A stretch of 64,000 nucleotides of DNA from Escherichia phage PC3. The notes beneath the pieces were generated by a model, which was not told the origin of the DNA, made no database searches, and saw only the letters and a list, made by a program, of their open reading frames with translations. Positions 14,034-32,188 of this stretch are shown here, piece by piece. The stretch's first letter is position 1, and each line of letters opens with the position of its first letter. The stretch lies in the sequence record ON184125, one strand, 5' to 3'. The position numbers were made by a program, and so were the translations under genes.

Positions 14034-15254
14034 ATGAAAGATAAAGCCCTGGACGTCCCGTACTGCGGTGTCCGTGAAGAAAAGATAAAGTCGGCCAAAC
14101 CGGTTCTCAGTCCGACCCATACCAGCCTGTCTTACGAATGGATGCGCGATCGTTATCAGATCCACGTCAAGAAGGACGTCCAGCGCCTTCCTGCTCCTTG
14201 GACTGATAATCCCATATTACGGCAGGTCAAGTTCTGTAACGTCCGGAGAGAGCACGACAGGCAGTCTCTCAACCTGATCAACAACATCGTCAACAACGAT
14301 GCTCTGGGTATGGCCGACAAGATGTTCAACTGCGTGATGTTTCGCATGTTCAACCTCTGGGATCCAATCCAGGCTATCGGCGGCGCGATGACGATCAAAG
14401 AATTCGCCGAGATCAACCTCGATGCAACCCGCGAACGACTTCAGAAGTTCGAGGCCGACGGCGGTAAGGTATTCACCAATGCCTTCAACACGGGCGGCCT
14501 GAAGCAATGCCTGGCTTTCCCTGAGATGGTTGTCAACCACAAGGAGCAGCGCTTCGGTGGGATGATGGTGAATCTGATCTGTAAAGATGGTTCAACCCAG
14601 AACATGGATTATAAAGAAGCCAAGGCGATAGCCGAAGCAGAACCGGACTTCTACACCATCGAAGGTTGGGAACCGTACATGCCAATGCGTGTCATCCGCT
14701 CCCTGAAGGCATTCGTCAACAAGTATCCAAATTATTTCCATGACCTGCTGCGCCTTGGTACTCCTTTGGAAGTATACCAGCGCATGTACGACGACATCGA
14801 AGGGCTTGGTCCATTCCTGGCCTATCAGATCTGGGTAGACTTCACTTACATTCCTGAATATCCTTTCAGTGAGAACCACTTCACGGTTGCTGGACCAGGC
14901 TGTCGCGCAGGGATCGACCTGATGTTCCAGGACAAAGATGGCATGACGCATGAAGAATGCATCTTCTGGTTGCGGGACAATCAGGACGCGGTTTATGGCC
15001 CTCTTGGGTATAACAGGGAAGAATTTTGGTCTGCGGAAGAGCCTTGGGATCGCCATTTAAATATAATGGCAGGAGAAAATATGTTTTGTGAACTTCAGAA
15101 ATATACCCGTTGTGTAGAGGCCATACAGCAAGGTAAAAAGCCGCGCGGGAAGGTTGGATATGACGGCGGTGGGGAATACAAAAAGCGCTGTGATGAAGTC
15201 GTGCTCAAACGTGGTTCCGTCAATTTGCTGGACCGTTTGAAGAAACCTGAATAA
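14034..15254 (+). CDS. Hypothetical protein (406 aa)
   Basis: Well-formed ORF with AGAGGA SD; no motif I can assign. Confidence 0.5.
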   Translation: MKDKALDVPYCGVREEKIKSAKPVLSPTHTSLSYEWMRDRYQIHVKKDVQRLPAPWTDNPILRQVKFCNVRREHDRQSLNLINNIVNNDALGMADKMFNCVMFRMFNLWDPIQAIGGAMTIKEFAEINLDATRERLQKFEADGGKVFTNAFNTGGLKQCLAFPEMVVNHKEQRFGGMMVNLICKDGSTQNMDYKEAKAIAEAEPDFYTIEGWEPYMPMRVIRSLKAFVNKYPNYFHDLLRLGTPLEVYQRMYDDIEGLGPFLAYQIWVDFTYIPEYPFSENHFTVAGPGCRAGIDLMFQDKDGMTHEECIFWLRDNQDAVYGPLGYNREEFWSAEEPWDRHLNIMAGENMFCELQKYTRCVEAIQQGKKPRGKVGYDGGGEYKKRCDEVVLKRGSVNLLDRLKKPE

Positions 15255-15368: not shown

Positions 15369-17387
15369 ATGTCAGATTTTAAGCCCTTCGCAGTAGCTGT
15401 CAACAATAACGTGCTGGCCATGTCAGCAACTGGTCTGTTCATGACCAACATCGATAAAGATGCTCTGTGGGATCTGTATCTGTCTTCTTTCCCTGCTGGC
15501 ACTAACCCGCTTTATCGTGAGCGTACCGAGCACGACTGCACCTGCTGTAAACAATTCATCCGTAACATCGGCGGTGTGGTCACCATCGACTCCGACCTGA
15601 ACGTGATCTCTATCTGGGATAACATTCAGCTGGGTAACGAATACGACGTTGTCGCTGCGGCGCTGTCAGCATATGTTAAGCAGCACGCAATCGTCGACGT
15701 GTACTTCAACGACACCAAGAAAGTTGGTGTTGAGTCGAATCACGAAATGAAAGACGGTATTGTCCGCACCTACAACCACTTCCACACCGACCTGCTGGGT
15801 AGCTATGTTCTGCGGGCAGATACCATCGCTTCTAAGAAGGGTGAAATCCGCCAGGCGATTGAAGTGTTTGAGCGCGGCCTGCGTGAACTGTCTCTGGAAT
15901 CGGCTGAAATCGTTCTTGAATTGATTGACCAGAATTCTCTGTATCGCGGTGAAGAGCACAAAGCGGCAGTGCAGGCGTTCGTGGTGAACAAGACCCTGTA
16001 CGAACAAACTGCAGAAGAGAAACGCGCTCTGTGGGCTTGGCGCACTGGCTACCGTGCAAACGGTCATACCCCTCACGGCATTCGTAATACCGTGATTGGC
16101 TCTCTGCTGGTAGACCTCAATGAAGGTCGGGATCTGGAAACCGCCGTGAAGTCCTTTGAAGCCAAAGTCGCTCCGACGAACTACAAGCGCCCAACCGCGC
16201 TGGTCACGAAGTCGATGATTGAAAACGCGCAGAAAGAAGTCGAAGCACTGGGTCTGACTGATTCACTGGGTCGCCGTTATGCCGTGTATGACGATCTGAC
16301 CATCAACAACGTTCTGTTCGCCGACCTAGCAGCTCAGAAGAAGATGGACCCGTTTGCTCAGCTGGCGTCTGAAGTGAAGACTCCGACCAAGTCCCTGGAC
16401 AAGGTTGAAGAGATCACGATCGACGACTTCCTGACCAACGTGTTGCCAAAGGCGCATTCCCTGGAAGTGCTGGTCGAAAACTCTCACATTGGCAACCTGA
16501 TGTCCCTGATCGCTCCGGCCACCGCAGGCGCTCCTAACCTGTTCAAGTGGAACAACGGCTTCAGCTGGTCGTACAATGGCGAAGTGGCCGACTCCATCAA
16601 AGAGCGCGTGAAGACCGCAGGCGGCAATGTCGACAGCTTCCTCCGTGTGTCACTGGCTTGGCATAACAACGACGACCTGGATCTGAGCCTGAACGATCCT
16701 CTTCACAACCACGTGTATTATCACAACCGTCGTTCGACAACTGGCGCAACTCTAGACATCGACATGAACGGTATGGACGGCATTGATCCAAACCGCCGTC
16801 CGGTGGAGAACATCTTCTTCAGCGATGAACGCAAGCTGCGTGATGGTCTGTACGAGTTCTATGTCACTAACTTCAGCCAGCGTGAAACCTGTGATATGGG
16901 ATTCGAAATCGAAGTTGAATACAAAGGCCAGACCAAGCGTTTTTCGCATCCTGGCCTGAAGCACAAAGATCGCACTCTGGCTGTTGTGATTGATGTCCGC
17001 GCTGGACAAGTGGTAGACATCCGTTCTACCCTGAAAGACGACGCTCGCTCTCAGGAAATCTGGGGCATCAAGACCTCCGTCTTCCAGAAGGTACAGCTGG
17101 TTCTGAACTCACCAAACCATTGGGACGGCGAGCAGACTGGCAACAAGCACGTGTTCTTCATCCTGGAAGGTTGTGTTAACCCTGTCGGCACCCGTGGTTT
17201 CTATAACGAATATCTGAAGCCGGAACTTGATAAACACCGCAAGGTTTTTGAAATGTTAGGCAGTAAGATTAAAGTACAGCCAAGCACTGAGCAGCTGTCC
17301 GGTCTGGGCTTCTCTACCACCCAACGCAACCACGTGTTCGTGAAGGTGAGCGGTTCTTTCAACCGCACTGTGAAAGTTGTGTTCTAA
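15369..17387 (+). CDS. Hypothetical large protein (672 aa)
   Basis: Long ORF with AGGAAG + attacatcATG context; no motif I can assign. Confidence 0.55.
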   Translation: MSDFKPFAVAVNNNVLAMSATGLFMTNIDKDALWDLYLSSFPAGTNPLYRERTEHDCTCCKQFIRNIGGVVTIDSDLNVISIWDNIQLGNEYDVVAAALSAYVKQHAIVDVYFNDTKKVGVESNHEMKDGIVRTYNHFHTDLLGSYVLRADTIASKKGEIRQAIEVFERGLRELSLESAEIVLELIDQNSLYRGEEHKAAVQAFVVNKTLYEQTAEEKRALWAWRTGYRANGHTPHGIRNTVIGSLLVDLNEGRDLETAVKSFEAKVAPTNYKRPTALVTKSMIENAQKEVEALGLTDSLGRRYAVYDDLTINNVLFADLAAQKKMDPFAQLASEVKTPTKSLDKVEEITIDDFLTNVLPKAHSLEVLVENSHIGNLMSLIAPATAGAPNLFKWNNGFSWSYNGEVADSIKERVKTAGGNVDSFLRVSLAWHNNDDLDLSLNDPLHNHVYYHNRRSTTGATLDIDMNGMDGIDPNRRPVENIFFSDERKLRDGLYEFYVTNFSQRETCDMGFEIEVEYKGQTKRFSHPGLKHKDRTLAVVIDVRAGQVVDIRSTLKDDARSQEIWGIKTSVFQKVQLVLNSPNHWDGEQTGNKHVFFILEGCVNPVGTRGFYNEYLKPELDKHRKVFEMLGSKIKVQPSTEQLSGLGFSTTQRNHVFVKVSGSFNRTVKVVF

Positions 17388-18246: not shown

Positions 18247-19119
18247 ATGACAAATCGTACTGGCATAAAACTCACTCCTGAAGTCCTGAAGTCACATATC
18301 GCTGAGGTGATTTACGAAGACCGCGAAGTCGGCGGTCACCGGGCTATCACTTGTCATTTCAAGATGGATAACGGCTTCGTCGTTCACGGCACCAAGCCCA
18401 GCACATCCATAGACCCGGCCAACTTTGATGAAGCCCTGGGCAAAGAGATTTCCTACAATAATACCTTCGACCAGCTGTGGCAGCTCGAGGCGTACCGGGC
18501 GCTTGTTGAACAAGATCTGTTGGCCAAAGCCACGGAAACGGCAGAGATCCGGATCGATAAATACGCTGTTGAACGTAGCGCCCTCTATCCGGCCTATCAC
18601 CTCGGCTTCAATGTGATGATTCAGGACGTGATGTTCAGAGCGGAAAATGGCGAGCGCTTCTTGGCGTCTTTCGTTTGTGGGCCGGATGACATGGAACTTG
18701 TTGTTGAATCTCACAACGCCAAATCTCGTAAGGCTGTTAGTGATTTCCTGCGCGCCAACTCCAAACTCGATCTCACTTATTCGCCATTGGTTCTGCGCAT
18801 CGCCAAGATTTGTCATGAAGCCAACCGCGCATACTGTAAGTCTGTTGGTGACGACTCTCAACTGCCTTGGGAACAATCTCCGGCCTGGCAACGTGAGAGC
18901 GCTTGCAAAGGTGTTATCTTCCATCTCACTGGTGATCGTAAGCCCAGCGAATCACATGAGAGATGGATGGCGGAGAAGGAGTCTGAGGGTTGGGTGTATG
19001 GCCCAGTCAAAGACCCTCAGACCAAACAACACCCTTGCATGGTTCCGTATGGAGAACTCCCGGTACAACAACGCTCCAAAGATTATATTTTCAAATCCAT
19101 TGTAGACTCCTTTAAATAA
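18247..19119 (+). CDS. RyR-domain-containing protein
   Basis: C-terminal GWVYGPVKDPQTKQHPCMVPYGELP matches the RyR-domain signature as I recall it. Confidence 0.5.
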   Translation: MTNRTGIKLTPEVLKSHIAEVIYEDREVGGHRAITCHFKMDNGFVVHGTKPSTSIDPANFDEALGKEISYNNTFDQLWQLEAYRALVEQDLLAKATETAEIRIDKYAVERSALYPAYHLGFNVMIQDVMFRAENGERFLASFVCGPDDMELVVESHNAKSRKAVSDFLRANSKLDLTYSPLVLRIAKICHEANRAYCKSVGDDSQLPWEQSPAWQRESACKGVIFHLTGDRKPSESHERWMAEKESEGWVYGPVKDPQTKQHPCMVPYGELPVQQRSKDYIFKSIVDSFK

Positions 19120-19153
19120 GCTCTGAATAATATTTCAACCTGTCAATAATATA

Positions 19154-19186
19154 ATGCCCGGTTATATTCAATCGGGCATTTTTATT
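19154..19186 (+). terminator. Rho-independent terminator
   Basis: atgcccg-gttatattcaat-cgggcat stem-loop followed by TTTTTATT. Confidence 0.7.
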
Positions 19187-19193
19187 ATATTAA

Positions 19194-19224
19194 TTGACAT
19201 CAATACCGCCTGTCGTAATATAAT
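19194..19224 (+). promoter_or_regulatory. Sigma70-like promoter (TTGACA, 17-19 bp spacer, TATAAT)
   Basis: ttgacatcaataccgcctgtcgtaatataat just after a terminator and upstream of ORF 19270. Confidence 0.45.
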
Positions 19225-19269
19225 AGTTCCATGTTGAAATAGTTGGGAAATATAACTCACGAGAGCCTG

Positions 19270-19446
19270 ATGACCGACAACAAATTAAAACGTGCCGGAC
19301 TTGATTGTCTTGACAAATCATTCCGCCCCAGTGATGTTCTGGTCGCCCAAATGGAAAACAACCGGGATTTCATTGAAACTATGCTGGAGAACGCCGACGC
19401 GAACTCCAAACACTCCAAAGCCCAAAAAGGTCAAAACGATGATTGA
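19270..19446 (+). CDS. Hypothetical small protein (58 aa)
   Basis: ORF 19243-19446 trimmed to ATG after GAGAG; overlaps start of vWA gene by 8 nt. Confidence 0.3.
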   Translation: MTDNKLKRAGLDCLDKSFRPSDVLVAQMENNRDFIETMLENADANSKHSKAQKGQNDD

Positions 19447-21640
19447 ATCATTAACATTTAAGAATGCGGTTGCGACCGTCGCGCCGTCTAACCATGTAAT
19501 CGTTGTGGATATCTCCGGTTCCATGTATCGTTCACTTCCAGAAGTCCGTAAGCATCTGAAGGAGAACATGCCTTCCCTGGTGAAACCCGAAGATACTGTG
19601 AGCATCCTTTACTTTTCATCTCGCGGTGATTTCGGAACGGTATTTGCCGGGCGTCAGATCGGTGCCGCATCTGACCTGAGCGAGCTGAACAAACTGATCG
19701 ATCGCTTCCTGCAACCGTCCGGATGTACTGGCTTTGTTGAGCCGTTGAAACTGGCAATGGACACTGCTCGTGGCCTGAAGAAGCCTGGCTATGTCAACAA
19801 CCTGGCGTTCATGACTGACGGGTATGACAACTGCTGGCGTACCAACGAAATTCTACTGGTTGCTGAGACCCTGCCATTTGCTTTCGATAACATTACATTT
19901 ATCGAATATGGCTGGTACTGTAACCGCGAACTGCTGGCGCAGATGGCCGAACGCTCTGGTGCTACTCACGTGTTTGCCGAAGGTCAGACCGAATACCAGA
20001 CCGAGCTGGAAAACGTGCTGAAGTCATCAGTGCCGAAGGTGGTTGTTGATGTGCCTCTGCTATACACCCACGCCATCTATGTTGAAAACGGCGTAGCAAC
20101 TGTTCTGGCGGTACAGCCGGATGAAGACCATCCTATCGGCCACGTGAGCATCCCTGAGAGCGTCGCCAAGCTGTGGGTTGTAAACCCTAACATGATCGAC
20201 CAGCTTGATGCGCTGGCGGATATCCAGGCGGCATACGTGCTGGCGTTCTACGGCGTACACATTATGGACGCGGACCTGGTGTGGGCTGCACTGAAGAAAA
20301 CGGGTGACGTTCGCTTCATCAAACAGTACAGCAACTGCTTCACCAAGCAGGACTACTCCAACATCAAAGTTGATCTGACCCAGGCCATCGTTGATGACCA
20401 GCTGCGCGGCGTTGACGGTATTGACTATGACCTGGTTCCGGCTGAAGATGCGACGACCGTCGTTGACGTGCTGACGTATCTGGCTGAAGCTGGCGTGTGT
20501 GTTGCTACCAAACATCCTATGTTCTCCTACAAGAGCATCGGGCGCGGTACTGTGCAGAAAACCGACGACACCGAAGACAAGCTGGCAGAACAGATCGCGA
20601 ATGCTCAGTCCAAAGAAGAGCGTAAAGCCCTGGCTCTCAAGCTGGCAGAGCACGAAGAGTGGAACCCGACGTTCGAACCTACCAACGACCTGGGTGTTGT
20701 GCCAATCAGCGATTTGGTCTATAACTCCGAGCGCCCGAACATCAGTGTGCGTACAATTCAACACGGTACTGTGGCTGTGCCTGAATTCGCACAGAAGAAG
20801 TTTGGCCTGCCTGAAGAACTGGATACTTTCCAGTGGCGCAACTACACCATCGTCAAAGACGGTATCATTAACGTGAAGACTCTGCCGTTCAAGGCTGATA
20901 TCGAAGTTGTACAGAAGCTGATCGAAATGGGTGTCCACGTGTTTGGTGGTCCGGAAGTGTTTGTCCTGAACCTGGAAAGCGTACCGCTGGTCAACCGCGC
21001 CATGGTCAAAAACATCAGTGCTGCTCAGTTCTTTGCGGATAATGTCCGTCTGGAAGCCCTGAAAGGCAAGCAGAAGGTGCTGAAGTTCTATCGAGACGCC
21101 CTGGTTGGTAAGGGTAACGCCAAAGGCCTGGCAGTACAGTACGGCGCTGAGGCGGCCGAGTTCCTGTCCTCCTACGGTATCCGCGATTACGGCTTCTCAC
21201 CGAAGACTGAGACCAAAGAGTCTACCGACTTCTACATGAGCCGTGAGCTGAACGTTAAGATCGCCGGGGCGTCTTCACTACCGAGCATCGCGGCAGTACA
21301 GAAGAAGATTGCCGAGAACAAGAAACTCAATGCTGGTGACTTGTTCATCGCTAATGCGCTGAAGGAGTACGAAGCATTCGTGAAGTCTCCTATGATCACT
21401 GCCGTGCCTGAATCCTTACAGAAATATCTGATCGAAAACTGGATCGACGCTGCTGCCAAGGCGGCCATCACCGAAGTCCGCGCCCTGAACAAGACACTGT
21501 CTAAAGTGGTTTATGGTATCGTTGCTGGTCATGGCTGGTTCACCGACCTCGACCTGGAAGAGTCCACCATGGAAGTTGAAGTGGATGGCGTGAAGTACAA
21601 GGTCACTGCCGAACTGACAGAGAAAGAAATCAAAATCTAA
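19439..21640 (+). CDS. von Willebrand factor A (vWA) domain protein (733 aa)
   Basis: N-terminal VVDISGSMYRS ... FMTDGYDN (MIDAS-like DxSxS and downstream acidic motif); ORF 19292-21640 trimmed to MIESLTF. Confidence 0.55.
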   Translation: MIESLTFKNAVATVAPSNHVIVVDISGSMYRSLPEVRKHLKENMPSLVKPEDTVSILYFSSRGDFGTVFAGRQIGAASDLSELNKLIDRFLQPSGCTGFVEPLKLAMDTARGLKKPGYVNNLAFMTDGYDNCWRTNEILLVAETLPFAFDNITFIEYGWYCNRELLAQMAERSGATHVFAEGQTEYQTELENVLKSSVPKVVVDVPLLYTHAIYVENGVATVLAVQPDEDHPIGHVSIPESVAKLWVVNPNMIDQLDALADIQAAYVLAFYGVHIMDADLVWAALKKTGDVRFIKQYSNCFTKQDYSNIKVDLTQAIVDDQLRGVDGIDYDLVPAEDATTVVDVLTYLAEAGVCVATKHPMFSYKSIGRGTVQKTDDTEDKLAEQIANAQSKEERKALALKLAEHEEWNPTFEPTNDLGVVPISDLVYNSERPNISVRTIQHGTVAVPEFAQKKFGLPEELDTFQWRNYTIVKDGIINVKTLPFKADIEVVQKLIEMGVHVFGGPEVFVLNLESVPLVNRAMVKNISAAQFFADNVRLEALKGKQKVLKFYRDALVGKGNAKGLAVQYGAEAAEFLSSYGIRDYGFSPKTETKESTDFYMSRELNVKIAGASSLPSIAAVQKKIAENKKLNAGDLFIANALKEYEAFVKSPMITAVPESLQKYLIENWIDAAAKAAITEVRALNKTLSKVVYGIVAGHGWFTDLDLEESTMEVEVDGVKYKVTAELTEKEIKI

Positions 21641-21645
21641 TCCAA

Positions 21646-21670
21646 CGGGCGGGGCAACCCGCCTTTCTTT
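21646..21670 (+). terminator. Putative rho-independent terminator
   Basis: ggcggg-gcaa-cccgcc stem followed by TTTCTTTGG. Confidence 0.5.
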
Positions 21671-21681
21671 GGAGTAATAAC

Positions 21682-22005
21682 ATGAGCAGTAAACCAACAT
21701 ATGTTGAAGTCATGCGTCATCTGGCTCAGTACGCCACTGACAATCTGAATATGGATCTGTGGCGTGACGATGACAAGCGCAAATTGCTGGACGACGTGGC
21801 ATCTCAGAACGAGGACGCCCTGGACAAGCTGGCTGGTCTCCGTACCAAGAAAGACCTCGGCGGTGACGAACTGGATGCCATCGAAATCGTAATGGAACTA
21901 GAAGAAGAGTTTCAGGTCGAAATCGACGACGGGTGGCTAGGTAGTAAAGGCGATGACCCGACCATGGGTGAACTCGCTGAACTCGTGGTTGCCCTGCGCA
22001 AATAA
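21682..22005 (+). CDS. Acyl-carrier-protein-like four-helix protein lacking the phosphopantetheinylation serine
   Basis: DLGGDELDAIEIVMELEEEFQVEIDD parallels ACP [20 protein letters not shown] but has DEL in place of DSL. Confidence 0.5.
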   Translation: MSSKPTYVEVMRHLAQYATDNLNMDLWRDDDKRKLLDDVASQNEDALDKLAGLRTKKDLGGDELDAIEIVMELEEEFQVEIDDGWLGSKGDDPTMGELAELVVALRK

Positions 22006-22010
22006 CAGAA

Positions 22011-22040
22011 GTCCCCAACAAACGTTGGGGATTTTTACTT
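22011..22040 (+). terminator. Rho-independent terminator
   Basis: gtccccaac-aaac-gttggggat stem-loop followed by TTTTTACTTTT. Confidence 0.75.
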
Positions 22041-22127
22041 TTAGGGGTTTACTTCCTCTAAGGAATGTCCTATTATTCAATAACTGGCGAACGATGGGTT
22101 CACCGGGTTGAAAGGTAAGATTATATC

Positions 22128-22367
22128 ATGAAGAACAAAATGGTCGAAACTTCAGTAGAGATTGATCGCAATTGGGGATTGCTCCGCGCTAAAGGGTTCC
22201 GTCGTGTGTATGCGACCAAAGAAGTCTACGCACAGCGCCGTGACGTTATCATCAGCAAGAAAGGCAAAGAGTGGGTTGCTGAAGAAGTTGATGTCGAGAC
22301 AGGCATCGTAGGAAAGGTAAAGGCCAAGGCCGTGATCCTCTTCGCTCTTCTGAAGCACATCAGTTAA
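22128..22367 (+). CDS. Hypothetical small protein (79 aa)
   Basis: ORF with ttatatcATG context. Confidence 0.4.
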   Translation: MKNKMVETSVEIDRNWGLLRAKGFRRVYATKEVYAQRRDVIISKKGKEWVAEEVDVETGIVGKVKAKAVILFALLKHIS

Positions 22368-22426
22368 TTCTATAACTTTGGGCGGGGTATGATTACCCCG
22401 TCTATTTGAAACCAAGAGACTATATC

Positions 22427-22801
22427 ATGAAAAAGTTAATCCTCGCTGTTGCCCTGCTGGGCGCTTCCTTTGCTGCTGTTTCCGCCCCTCCTGTCATCAC
22501 CGGAGTGTCTACCAACGGTGTTTATGCTTTCAAGGCGTATGGCCAAGACCTCGTTCTGTATAAGAACGGGAAGATGATTGAGCGCTGCGTATCAGACGAC
22601 GTGAATCGTGGGATCGACAATCAGGGTAGCCCATACGTCCTGGACATCTATTCCTGCTCCAACGGGACGAAGTCCTTTGGCGTCAAGACCTTTGGCAACG
22701 TCGCCGACGGTGGCTGGGGCTTCATGTTCGAAACCCGCAACCACCACCCGGTCAAGACCATGCAAGAAGAGTTCTTGATCTCTGTCGGGGGTACGTTATG
22801 A
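22427..22801 (+). CDS. Secreted/periplasmic small protein (N-terminal signal peptide)
   Basis: MKKLILAVALLGASFAAVSA signal-peptide-like N-terminus; ORF 22406-22801 trimmed to ctatatcATG. Confidence 0.5.
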   Translation: MKKLILAVALLGASFAAVSAPPVITGVSTNGVYAFKAYGQDLVLYKNGKMIERCVSDDVNRGIDNQGSPYVLDIYSCSNGTKSFGVKTFGNVADGGWGFMFETRNHHPVKTMQEEFLISVGGTL

Positions 22802-23085
22802 CACCATCAGAGAGAAGTTCTATCAAGGAGATGATCAGAGACAAGGCGTGTGTTGGTCATACTCAGTCAGAGAACATCTTGCGCCTGATGGTAATAAAGA
22901 ACGATATCGACAACAGCCGATTCCAAACAGCGTTGTATGGCATGCTGGAGTTTATATCGCGGTCATCTGATCTTGGCACGGTCCGATATCTTGACGATCT
23001 TACCAAGCTGCTGAACACGGGCGGGGAAACTTTCGACACCGCTCGTATCCTGATTGACGGTAGACCTGAAGAAGACGAGGTATAA
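22798..23085 (+). CDS. Hypothetical protein (95 aa)
   Basis: ATGA overlap with upstream gene. Confidence 0.4.
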   Translation: MTPSERSSIKEMIRDKACVGHTQSENILRLMVIKNDIDNSRFQTALYGMLEFISRSSDLGTVRYLDDLTKLLNTGGETFDTARILIDGRPEEDEV

Positions 23086-23086
23086 T

Positions 23087-23245
23087 TTGGATAAAGAATT
23101 GGTTTGGGAAATTGTGAAGGGTGTCCTAGTAATAATCGCGGTGGTTTTCATCTTGGGTGGGAACTTCTTCTATTGGTTATTCCGATCCGACCAGAAACGT
23201 CGCGAACGCAAGGAGAAAGAGAGAAAGGATCGATGGATGCGCTAA
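23087..23245 (+). CDS. Possible small single-pass membrane protein
   Basis: Hydrophobic VLVIIAVVFILGGNFFYWLF followed by RERKEKERK; start codon uncertain (TTG or GTG). Confidence 0.25.
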   Translation: MDKELVWEIVKGVLVIIAVVFILGGNFFYWLFRSDQKRRERKEKERKDRWMR

Positions 23246-23277
23246 CTAAGGGATAACCCTATATCCCGAGGTGTGTC

Positions 23278-23727
23278 ATGTTCCTTACATCCTTTATTGA
23301 CTGGTTGAACATCATTAACGGCCTGAGGATCCCTGTTGGGAACCTCGGGCTTTCGCGTTCTTCTATGCCACAAATCGATGCCGACAAACAAGAAGATTTT
23401 CACAAATATCTTGAAGACAACGGCGTGTCCATAGATGCTGTACAAGTGCCCATCAAAATGCTTCGTCTCACCCAGAACGAAATCAACAAGATGAAGGTCT
23501 GGAAGATCATGAAGAACATCAGAAATAAGAAACCTATGGGTCGAGTTTGGGTGTCTTCTGACAATTACGTTGTTGACGGTTCTCACCGATTTGTCGCTGC
23601 GTTGAACATGGACGGCAAACAGCGCATGAAGGTCTACAAAGTTGATTTGCCAGCGATGGAATTTGTTAAACTCGCTAAACAGTTTCAGGGTGTGCGATAC
23701 AGAACGGTCAGCGATACTCGTTTCTGA
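23278..23727 (+). CDS. ParB-like nuclease domain (ParBc/Srx-like) protein
   Basis: VVDGSHRFVAA matches the ParB-like DGxHRxxA signature; GAGG SD. Confidence 0.5.
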   Translation: MFLTSFIDWLNIINGLRIPVGNLGLSRSSMPQIDADKQEDFHKYLEDNGVSIDAVQVPIKMLRLTQNEINKMKVWKIMKNIRNKKPMGRVWVSSDNYVVDGSHRFVAALNMDGKQRMKVYKVDLPAMEFVKLAKQFQGVRYRTVSDTRF

Positions 23728-23806
23728 ATACGATAGTTTATTGAATCCCTTTACTCATCATGGTGAGCCGCCTATCATTTCATCCAATGAAATAAGGAGA
23801 ATCACC

Positions 23807-24493
23807 ATGAAACGTTTAATCCTCGGGGTTGTGCTGGCTGGTCTGGCATTACCCGCCGCTACCAAGCTGAATTCCACAGGTGATAAACTGTGGTCTGACC
23901 TTTCCTATTGTGCTGGGTTCTCCCAGGCGGTTGCCATCGACAAGTCTGGTTCCATAGAGAACTTCGCTGAACTCTGGAACACAGGCAACGTCTCCACTGC
24001 TGTCATCAATGCCGGAATTGAGTTCAACCGTTACAAACAGGGAGCCTATAACCTCAAAGGCTACCTCAATGACGACGAATTTAACCGTGGAGGCATGGAG
24101 GCTGGCGATTTGATCATGACTGGGCGTATGGGCACCCAAGGCCGAATGACCGTAAGACAGTGCCGTTCGCTCCCTTCTCCGGCATTACAGAAGGGTGTGC
24201 AGGTTGGTCGCCGCCACCTGAACCTTATCAACGATGGCAACCAGTGCATCAAAGTATTCGAATACAGCGCTACGCAGACCTCTGATCGCGTCCTGAAGAA
24301 GGAATGGCGCACCCGCGCTCTTGGTCTCAGAGCCTGGCTGGTTGAGAACGATTATTACTTTGAAGACAGGGTTCAGAACGGTCTGAAAGACCTGGCCACG
24401 AATCTGAGCGTGAACCTTGATGATCCCCGCATGTCGCGCGAACTCCAGCAGACTCGTGTTGACTGCGACAATATGATGAAGGAGAACGAGTGA
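23807..24493 (+). CDS. Secreted protein (signal peptide), unknown function
   Basis: MKRLILGVVLAGLALPAATK signal peptide; AAGGAGA SD; ORF 23642-24493 trimmed. Confidence 0.5.
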   Translation: MKRLILGVVLAGLALPAATKLNSTGDKLWSDLSYCAGFSQAVAIDKSGSIENFAELWNTGNVSTAVINAGIEFNRYKQGAYNLKGYLNDDEFNRGGMEAGDLIMTGRMGTQGRMTVRQCRSLPSPALQKGVQVGRRHLNLINDGNQCIKVFEYSATQTSDRVLKKEWRTRALGLRAWLVENDYYFEDRVQNGLKDLATNLSVNLDDPRMSRELQQTRVDCDNMMKENE

Positions 24494-31086: not shown

Positions 31087-32188
31087 AATTGGCGATCTGC
31101 ATATCGGGAGCCGTAATGGTTCTCGATACGTTCGCGACTTCATCAAGAACTATCTCATCAATTATTTCATTCCTGAACTTGCCGACTCTGATATCAAAGA
31201 GGTCTGGCAGTTCGGTGATATGTTTGATGTCCGCAAATTCATGTACGGTCGTGACAAAGACTGGCTGAAGGATGAACTCACCCCTGCATTGAAAGCGGCT
31301 GGTATCAAGTGGAATGGCATCGTGGGTAACCATGACATCACCCTGGAAGAGTCCAACCGCATCAACTGGCCATCCTACCTGAACGAACTCGACCCGGATG
31401 TGTACTGCTATTACAGCGAACCGACCGAAGTGATGATCGAGGGTGTCAAGACTCTGCTGCTGCCTTGGATCAACAAGGAGAACTATGATGCGTCTATTAA
31501 AGCGATACAAGATACAGACGCCGAGTACTGTTTTGCGCATCTGGAGCTGGCGGGGTTCAAAATGTACCAGTCTTCTACTTGTGATCACGGTCAGATCGAC
31601 GTTGCTCTGCTTTCCAAGTTTACCAGGGTCGACACGGGCCATTTCCATACCCGTTCGATGGAAGGTAACATTCAATATATTGGGACTCCATATCACCTGA
31701 ACTGGGAAGACTACAAAGACGGCACTAACCGTGGCTTCTATGTGGACGACATGCGTGGTGGTGAGATCTTTATCCCGAACGCCGAGCACCAGACGCTGTT
31801 CCGCTATGTGGAATATGATTACACCAAGTTGTCCTCTGATGAAGAAGGTAATTGGATCGACCCGGAATGGCTGAACACAGGCTTGGGTATTGAAGGGCAA
31901 ATTGTTAAGGTTATTGTACAGAACCGTGACAATGCTAAGCATTATGAAAAGTTCTGTGATGCGATGAAGCGATGCAAGTGTATTGACTACAACTTCATCG
32001 ACCGGACGATTACTGTTGCTGCCGAGAAGGTTGAGGTCACCGAAGAGATGGTGGCGACCGATGCGGTGGAAGTCCTGAAGAAGGATATCCGCGCCGGGAA
32101 CAACATTCAGCGCCCCGACAACGTCTGTAAACTGGCAGAGCACTTCTATAATGCTGCCCAACAACGCCTGAACAAACTGGATGCATAA
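31073..32188 (+). CDS. 47: Recombination endonuclease subunit (gp47-like, Mre11/SbcD family)
   Basis: Phosphoesterase motifs GDLHIG, GDMFD, GNHD, GHFH; collinear with T4 gp47. Confidence 0.85.
   Translation: MAIAKIGDLHIGSRNGSRYVRDFIKNYLINYFIPELADSDIKEVWQFGDMFDVRKFMYGRDKDWLKDELTPALKAAGIKWNGIVGNHDITLEESNRINWPSYLNELDPDVYCYYSEPTEVMIEGVKTLLLPWINKENYDASIKAIQDTDAEYCFAHLELAGFKMYQSSTCDHGQIDVALLSKFTRVDTGHFHTRSMEGNIQYIGTPYHLNWEDYKDGTNRGFYVDDMRGGEIFIPNAEHQTLFRYVEYDYTKLSSDEEGNWIDPEWLNTGLGIEGQIVKVIVQNRDNAKHYEKFCDAMKRCKCIDYNFIDRTITVAAEKVEVTEEMVATDAVEVLKKDIRAGNNIQRPDNVCKLAEHFYNAAQQRLNKLDA

Follow-up and report, generated by a model that had tools for sequence, protein, structure and literature searches.

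What does an acyl carrier protein (ACP) do in a phage genome if it lacks the serine to which the phosphopantetheine arm is attached? The question is raised by a gene of Escherichia phage PC3 (sequence record ON184125), of which a stretch of 64 000 nucleotides, hereafter the window, was analysed. An open reading frame (ORF) starting with ATG at position 21682 and ending at 22005 on the plus strand, with a GGAG motif 7 nt 5′ of the start codon, encodes a polypeptide of 107 amino acids containing DLGGDELDAIEIVMELEEEF, hereafter the ACP-like protein. Positions 19000..24000 of the window match the record of Escherichia phage PH4 (ON184126.1; Ackermannviridae, Aglimvirinae) at 100% identity, with position 1 of the window falling at position 32001 of that record, and the ACP-like protein is 100% identical to the product of PH4 coding sequence URX66031.1, labelled 'acyl carrier protein', a label also carried by orthologues in many Ackermannviridae genomes. 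The gene is thus already known and named; what seems not to have been described before, judging from the literature searched, is the absence of the residue that defines a carrier. By its fold and its Pfam score the protein is a member of the carrier-protein superfamily, and it is not a functional ACP, since the defining serine is absent. A search of the literature found no account of a characterised phage ACP lacking this serine, nor any relevant transcriptome of an Ackermannviridae phage.

The relationship to carrier proteins was apparent from profiles, alignments and a structural model. The ACP-like protein scored 26.0 bits against the Pfam family PP-binding (PF00550), above the gathering score of 20.8. 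It fell below the cut-off of 32 for PP-binding_2 (25.2 bits) and below those of all 11 NCBIfam ACP models (AcpP equivalog or subfamily models; 13–35 bits, maximum 34.6, with cut-offs of 66–106). The phrog_4154 profile, annotated 'acyl carrier protein', matched over the full length of the protein (2.4e-57; residues 1–107 to profile positions 1–108 of 108). A phmmer search against all PDB chains returned only ACPs, the best matches being those of B. subtilis and Plasmodium (5.5e-6, versus 1.9e-4 for the enterobacterial ACP); the segment 'DLGgDELDaiEiVMELEeEF' was aligned to the B. subtilis and P. falciparum ACPs with Glu63 opposite the Ser of D-S-L. A BLASTP comparison with E. coli AcpP gave 17 identities over 27 positions (63%) in helix II and the following loop and set Glu63 exactly on the modified Ser, a placement reproduced in a MAFFT alignment. 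The AlphaFold2 (AF2) model (mean predicted local distance difference test score 73.9) is a helical bundle with helices at residues 7–21, 63–77, 85–88 and 95–106 plus extra ones, in which helix II begins at residue 63. The top 50 Foldseek matches of this model in the PDB were all acyl or peptidyl carrier proteins, with template modelling (TM) scores normalised to the target of up to 0.81, and it agreed with an independent BFVD model of the orthologue from phage ViI (TM 0.90). Pfam, phmmer, BLASTP, MAFFT and AF2/Foldseek therefore all bear out the original prediction, which had read the product as an ACP-like protein with DEL in place of DSL at the attachment site. No other conserved Ser was found in the protein, Ser2, Ser3, Ser41 and Ser88 all varying within the family, and the earlier claim that it is unable to carry acyl groups is supported accordingly. 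With the Ser of D-S-L replaced by Glu or Asp, no phosphopantetheine arm would be possible, so that on sequence grounds the protein is predicted to receive no holo modification and not to be a conventional acyl carrier.

The replacement is not a peculiarity of one genome. Position 63 was Glu in 30 of 32 close homologs (identity down to 55%) and Asp in the other two, and in all members examined, including distant (about 33% identity) and metagenomic relatives, it was Glu or Asp and never Ser; the carboxylate extends across about 300 phage records plus the metagenomic relatives. An exhaustive profile search of 1.84 billion representatives yielded a handful more full-length members (P0042–P0049, 33–50% identity), every one of them with D-E-L or D-D-L, and the 86-residue form of Serratia phage KNP4 reads NFDELD. 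Ser-bearing close relatives, which would be a sign of recent mutation, were sought in the clade and none was found; the nearest Ser-bearing proteins were ordinary ACPs, with E-values around 1e-9 to 1e-8 against the family profile. Codon 63 is GAA, GAG or GAC in relatives, and the amino-acid class has therefore been upheld through nucleotide turnover. Across the 32 sequences 29 columns were invariant, including D62, L64, D65, E68, E74, E76, W85 and D91-D92-P93-T94; of these, D62, E68 and E74 are invariant also in comparison with canonical ACPs and D65 nearly so. Pairwise ratios of nonsynonymous to synonymous substitution rates (dN/dS) were 0.22–0.38, the highest being that between the window and phage Maynard, and the Shine-Dalgarno sequence and terminator of the gene are conserved in relatives. 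Taken at sequence level, these data indicate that the Ser replacement is fixed rather than a one-off mutation and that the protein is kept by purifying selection as a permanently cofactor-less ACP-like protein. Had function simply been lost, many different residues could be tolerated at this site, and the restriction to a carboxylate is therefore the most telling unexplained fact about the family; strict selection for an acidic residue where the arm once attached suggests that the protein has a definite role in binding and is not simply decaying. A further, unannotated member was noticed in Erwinia phage vB_EamM-Bue1 (NC_048702.1, complement 84598..84897; L014:5310-5609), an ORF of 99 amino acids with the motif AMDELD that lies in the gap between gp097, encoding a von Willebrand factor A (vWA) domain protein, and gp096, is preceded by a GC hairpin and has no entry in the RefSeq annotation.

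The attachment site falls at residue 63, as against 36 or 37 in AcpP, because about 27 residues have been inserted after helix I. This region contains a hypervariable segment (codons 25–48) with a mean column entropy of 1.70 bits, compared with 0.59–0.71 elsewhere, and the AF2 model forms extra helices here (residues 24–27, 30–40 and 44–51). Between the window protein and its homolog P0012 identity was 96–98% in the flanks and 29% within codons 25–48; such variability could reflect diversifying selection or recombination between alleles. The KNP4 form, of normal ACP length, is without the insertion and yet already has Glu, and the change from Ser to Glu therefore appears to be older than the N-terminal insertion, which in PH4 would be a later acquisition.

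The gene had been described in the original prediction as an isolated transcription unit, which proved wrong: it has no promoter of its own and starts 41 nt behind the stop codon of a vWA gene, which it also follows in relatives. No sigma-70-like site was found on the plus strand between 19222 and 22047, and no T4-type late motif (TATAAATA) before the gene. The best promoter-like site on the plus strand in 19000..23500, at 19194..19221, is a consensus match only; its sequence is conserved in Maynard and at the related locus L008 (as a TTGGCA variant), as is the terminator-like hairpin preceding it. Since there is no promoter in front of the ACP-like gene, and a terminator and a promoter-like site lie before a 58-residue ORF further upstream, the ACP-like gene is assigned from these signals as the third and last cistron of a predicted three-gene operon that also comprises the 58-residue ORF and the 733-residue vWA protein (Table 1). 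The first two reading frames overlap by 8 nt, an arrangement that is predicted to couple their translation. An ORF of 55–70 amino acids occupies the same place in L005, L006, L008 and L010; that of the window had no family match in PADLOC/NCBIfam-type model scans.

That the gene is flanked by terminators, as had also been claimed, holds on its downstream side, where none of 200 shuffled sequences folded as well as the hairpin and where both stem and T-run are conserved in all relatives (the palindrome is listed on the minus strand too). It does not hold upstream. The GC-rich hairpin there ends 17 nt 5′ of the ATG, in a spacer that holds only the GGAG Shine-Dalgarno sequence; it occurs at this intercistronic spot in all relatives with differing stem sequences, and a T-tail after it is absent in L005, L007, L009 and L010. 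It lies between cistrons as an attenuator, a stabiliser or a site of processing and does not mark the end of a transcription unit. In the minimum-free-energy fold of 21641–21673 the base of this hairpin (UCCAA with UUGGA) includes part of the Shine-Dalgarno sequence in its pairing; in this model the pairing could damp translation of the ACP-like gene, the extension not being obviously conserved in relatives. Beyond the downstream terminator a block at 22044..22085, unique in the window, recurs nearly base for base in relatives whose coding sequences are at 33–50% protein identity, and is probably a phage promoter or regulatory site. An Rfam scan of the operon gave one sub-threshold chance match only, and no tRNAs were found in the window.

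Table 1. Features of the ACP-like gene and its putative operon (window coordinates)
Feature	Position	Strand	Basis and remarks
Terminator-like hairpin and T-run closing the preceding unit	19153..19180	+	11-pair stem followed by TTTATTATAT; −15.7 kcal/mol, z = −4.5
Candidate sigma-70-like promoter of the operon	19194..19221	+	TTGACA, 16 nt, TAATAT; 10/12 consensus matches
ORF of 58 amino acids, first cistron	19270..19446	+	8-nt overlap of its stop with the start of the vWA gene
vWA-domain protein of 733 amino acids, candidate partner	19439..21640	+	Complete MIDAS motif (D24-x-S26-x-S28, T97, D127)
GC-rich intercistronic hairpin (GCAA loop) between vWA and ACP-like genes	21647..21664	+	−18.5 kcal/mol including basal extension, z = −3.2
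ACP-like gene (107 amino acids), third and last cistron	21682..22005	+	ORF, Pfam, phrog_4154, alignments, model
Codons 25–48, hypervariable inserted segment (extra helices relative to a 77-residue ACP)	21754..21825	+	Entropy, AF2 model
Glu codon 63 (GAA), aligned with the phosphopantetheinylated Ser	21868..21870	+	phmmer, BLASTP; GAA/GAG/GAC in relatives
Intrinsic terminator ending the operon	22012..22038 (hairpin 22012..22031)	+	8-pair stem TCCCCAAC/GTTGGGGA plus TTTTT; −18.5 kcal/mol, z = −5.8
Promoter-like block starting the next unit	22044..22085	+	GGGGTTTACTTC ... TATTATTCAATAAC; TTTACT, 17 nt, TATTAT; conserved in L001 and L006–L009

The neighbouring vWA protein, the most telling clue in the genomic context and one not mentioned in the original prediction, offers a candidate partner. 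Its vWA fold was confirmed, the residues of its metal-ion-dependent adhesion site (MIDAS) are invariant in 65 homologs, and its N-terminus resembles protein–protein interaction scaffolds such as ArnB of the ArnA–ArnB complex and ITIH. MIDAS sites accept a Glu or Asp of the ligand as the sixth ligand of the metal (in integrin I-domains, in CMG2 with anthrax protective antigen, and in midasin with ubiquitin-like (UBL) domains), and no part of the ACP fold protrudes further or is more open to enzymes than the start of helix II; the ACP-like protein is therefore proposed as a binding subunit of the vWA protein. At the place where the Ser-linked phosphopantetheine emerges in true ACPs, the N-terminus of helix II here would present Glu63 (sometimes Asp) between Asp62 and Asp65, and this carboxylate may dock on a positively charged or metal-bearing site of a partner, for which the Mg2+ of the MIDAS in the co-transcribed vWA protein is the most plausible candidate, probably in the service of host take-over in early or middle infection. 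We thus tentatively favour a 'dead' ACP kept as a protein-binding module or adaptor that acts through helix II and Glu63, most likely with the vWA protein, and give this reading somewhat less than an even chance. A more detailed version, in which Glu63 sits in the MIDAS Mg2+ site and the complex, possibly with the 58-residue protein, forms an unrecognised Ackermannviridae host-takeover machine, for example by trapping host ACP-client enzymes through the AcpP-like surface, is doubtful and is put forward as speculation.

Genomic context bears on this proposal in both directions. The ACP-like gene lies directly 3′ of the vWA gene in Maynard, at L005–L010 and in Bue1, even where other neighbours differ (an insertion of nicotinamide adenine dinucleotide (NAD) salvage genes in L005, extra ORFs in L006 and L010). 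In L005 (3027-5542), from a metagenomic Ackermannviridae-like phage, a phosphoribosyltransferase gene and a nicotinate phosphoribosyltransferase (NAPRTase) gene are inserted just 5′ of an operon encoding a 56-residue protein, the vWA protein and the ACP-like protein. Several observations weigh against a dedicated partnership and account for our limited confidence. The vWA protein matched 503 phage records, compared with 299 for the ACP-like protein, and no ACP-like neighbour was detected beside the vWA gene in Slopekvirus and other Straboviridae (Miro, EC-F1, POP12), in Bacillus phage PBS1 or in Rhizobium phage RHph_TM30; a pairing found outside the Ackermannviridae would have been strong evidence of an independent kind. 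All paired loci belong to one largely collinear virus family, and adjacency may therefore partly reflect common descent; in KNP4 (L017:2047-2906, an unannotated record) three small ORFs lie between the two genes, so the pair can be separated. At the same loci the ACP-like protein has 33–50% identity, whereas the vWA protein has 71–78%, and the fast evolution and hypervariable cassette of the former are more in keeping with a host target that varies than with a phage partner that is conserved. Finally, among ten multi-domain matches scanned there was none with a vWA domain fused to a Ser-less ACP-like domain, only tandem carrier-like domains.

The vWA family itself, phrog_2426, is found at full length in the Ackermannviridae, Slopekvirus and other Straboviridae, and more distantly in Bacillus PBS1 and Rhizobium phages (L011–L016). 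Both the vWA and the ACP-like proteins were found by mass spectrometry in preparations of phage Sajous1, with one retrieval each (PMC10892097), from which we take both to be expressed and neither to be an abundant virion component. Some records label the vWA protein 'tail protein' or 'minor tail protein', a designation that the single-peptide proteomics does not support (PMC10892097).

The main rival, the mimicry of host ACP that the original prediction had suggested and with which the data are compatible, dispenses with the vWA protein and makes the ACP-like protein a decoy of host ACP, competing with apo- or holo-ACP for ACP clients such as PlsB, AcpS, Lpx acyltransferases, SpoT, MukB or IscS; it would shut down or rewire host lipid/envelope synthesis or signalling, and Glu63 could mimic the phosphodiester of holo-ACP. 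The surface that such clients recognise is well kept, with the 63% identity to E. coli AcpP across helix II and the next loop and with the equivalents of AcpP D35, D38, E41 and E47 invariant in the family. Apo-ACP is reported to inhibit glycerol-3-phosphate acyltransferase strongly and to stop the growth of E. coli (Keating, Carey and Cronan 1995, as cited in PMC3896788), and SpoT binds holo-ACP and not apo-ACP (PMC3896788), both of which lend substance to interference of this kind. The gene is placed among early/middle replication and host-takeover genes, phrog_4154 falls in the PHROG category 'moron, auxiliary metabolic gene and host takeover', and the rapid evolution and variable cassette suit a host-facing protein. 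Against this, the closer match to B. subtilis and Plasmodium ACPs than to the enterobacterial protein gives no sign of specific host mimicry, and the 27-residue insertion together with the W85 and DDPT91–94 motifs changes the surface around helices I and III. A simple apo-mimic would moreover tolerate Ala, Asn or Thr at position 63, where only Glu or Asp occurs, and would have no need of a carboxylate unless Glu mimics the phosphodiester of holo-ACP. Host ACP amounts to 0.25% of soluble protein (PMC3896788), so that a competitor would need very high expression or affinity. We regard a decoy without a vWA role as a serious but rather unlikely explanation; it and the proposed vWA adaptor are not mutually exclusive.

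A second suggestion of the original prediction, that the protein is an acidic DNA or protein mimic with anti-restriction or anti-defence activity like Ocr, ArdA or Gp5.9, found no specific support, because its isoelectric point (pI) of 4.26 is simply that of any ACP (4.05 for E. coli AcpP). The net charge of about −14, the early/middle location of the gene and a hypervariable segment that could reflect an arms race would suit such a mimic. Ordinary ACPs are nevertheless at least as acidic, conservation picks out the recognition helix of ACPs and not a DNA-like charge ladder, all 50 top structural neighbours in the PDB are carrier proteins, and the sole match to a PADLOC defence model was weak (E = 0.023, 11.6 bits), with nothing significant; we consider mimicry of this kind very unlikely.

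That a carboxylate is strictly kept where carriers are normally loaded could also be read as a covalent carrier loaded through Glu63 by an isopeptide or ester bond, in the manner of LysW/ArgW and possibly tied to thymidine hypermodification. The LysW/ArgW amino-group carrier proteins are a precedent for carboxylate loading, and a gene for 5-hydroxymethyldeoxyuridine (5-hmdU) DNA kinase lies about 6 kb upstream. None of the ten neighbouring proteins that were scanned, however, was an ATP-grasp enzyme or another ligase, the Asp that replaces Glu in several members alters the reach of the side chain, and the gene is not adjacent to the kinase gene, terminators lying between them; the hypermodification enzymes of ViI-like phages, besides, act on DNA with free amino acids. 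Loading of Glu63 is accordingly highly improbable. Equally hard to credit is the reading of the gene as the functionless, decaying remnant of a phage ACP that once worked: the catalytically essential residue is lost, the dN/dS against Maynard is moderately raised (0.38) and the central segment is highly variable, but about 300 phage genomes and deep metagenomic relatives have kept the reading frame whole, the 29 invariant columns and a dN/dS well under 1 speak for constraint, position 63 is confined to Glu and Asp while its codons change synonymously, both the Shine-Dalgarno sequence and the terminator have been conserved and a peptide has been detected by mass spectrometry (PMC10892097).

The neighbours of the ACP-like gene comprise the vWA protein, small ORFs, a protein with RyR and gp49_66 domains, a zinc-finger protein and the 5-hmdU DNA kinase, and no acyl-transfer enzyme of any kind, fatty-acid and polyketide enzymes included, was found among those scanned. 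The kinase gene (14034-15254; PF18723, 2.5e-79) specifies the entry enzyme of thymidine hypermodification in ViI-like phages, and from its presence the DNA of PH4 is probably hypermodified. Beside it, a 672-residue protein (15369..17387) matches in size and position a 674-residue product of L005 recorded as DUF8224. The RyR protein (18247-19119; 290 amino acids) combines a ryanodine-receptor repeat (RyR) domain with a domain of the N4 gp49 / Sf6 gp66 family and is conserved beside the operon in L005.

The assignment matters beyond this phage. About 300 Ackermannviridae genomes have the gene, many of those listed with the label 'acyl carrier protein', among them ViI, CBA120-like, LIMEstone and Klebsiella Taipeivirus phages, which are used or proposed for biocontrol and therapy. 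As the protein is predicted to accept no phosphopantetheine, the label misstates its function and the gene is not to be counted as an auxiliary metabolic (lipid) gene. Its operon link to an equally conserved MIDAS protein, spread over several large-phage families, suggests a binding role over decay. Should Glu63 prove to bind at the MIDAS site of the vWA protein, it would be the first case of an ACP-fold MIDAS ligand and would give a first function to the widespread phage vWA family phrog_2426; should the decoy be true, it would represent a new form of phage interference with host lipid/envelope synthesis and could guide the design of peptides or proteins that inhibit ACP-dependent enzymes.

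Among known systems, the ACP-like protein is closest in architecture to E. coli AcpP and PF00550, with which it shares the four-helix carrier fold, the acidic recognition helix II (17 of 27 positions), a Pfam score above threshold and a very acidic pI. It differs from AcpP in having Glu or Asp for Ser, in the roughly 27 extra residues that form additional N-terminal helices, in a family-specific helix-III region (W85, DDPT), in its scores of 13–35 bits against NCBIfam AcpP models requiring 66–106, and in sharing a phage operon with a vWA gene instead of accompanying fab genes. Genuine phage ACPs (phrog_5934), such as those of the jumbo phages Ralstonia phiRSL1 (ORF083) and Burkholderia BCSR5, are likewise small acidic carrier folds of large phages with a detectable relationship; they keep G-x-D-S-L-D, whereas the Ackermannviridae clade, comprising phrog_4154 and the KNP4 and Bue1 forms, does not. 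The profile search also brought up many further domains of the carrier type that have D-E/D-L in place of D-S-L and occur outside the Ackermannviridae (P0053, P0055, P0057, P0062, P0074, P0088, P0128, P0131 and P0140). Among them are the short phage-borne proteins P0053, P0055 and P0057, the last encoded on a phage-like contig with Thy1 and HNH genes (L003:6001-6297), and proteins in which two or three Ser-less domains stand in tandem; beyond these domains Pfam recognised nothing informative in them. The family profile favours Glu at the position-63 column and the frequency of D-E/D-L is not readable from the match list, but the occurrence of these sequences suggests that acidic 'pseudo-carrier' domains are a recurrent, unstudied theme.

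Three further comparisons concern how the protein may work. With the ligands of MIDAS sites (those of integrin I-domains, anthrax protective antigen bound by CMG2, and the UBL domains of Rsa4 and Ytm1 bound by midasin) the analogy would lie in an exposed Glu or Asp, here encoded beside the gene of an invariant-MIDAS protein; it speaks to a possible mode of action and not to family membership, and we know of no ACP-fold MIDAS ligand. Apo-ACP, the model for a decoy, is reported still to bind clients and to inhibit glycerol-3-phosphate acyltransferase when unloaded (PMC3896788); it is the host's own unmodified protein, whereas that of the phage has diverged, is longer and invariably has an acidic residue where the arm would attach. 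For a 'dead' ACP the clearest precedent is the divergent mitochondrial ACP (mACP) of Plasmodium falciparum, which is described as lacking the phosphopantetheine group and as being essential, binding and stabilising Isd11–Nfs1 (Falekun et al. 2021, PMC8547962). As that account has it, the ACP fold is there retained under selection in the absence of the prosthetic group, in a eukaryotic organelle and with the Isd11–Nfs1 partner; for the phage protein no equivalent is evident, and the candidate partner is the vWA protein. No sequence relationship between the two was seen beyond the shared superfamily. The residue replacing Ser in the Plasmodium mACP is hydrophobic (Phe), whereas that of the phage family is strictly acidic. 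Adaptor ACPs without a cofactor have previously been described from the mitochondria of apicomplexans; a phage example would carry the principle over to viruses.

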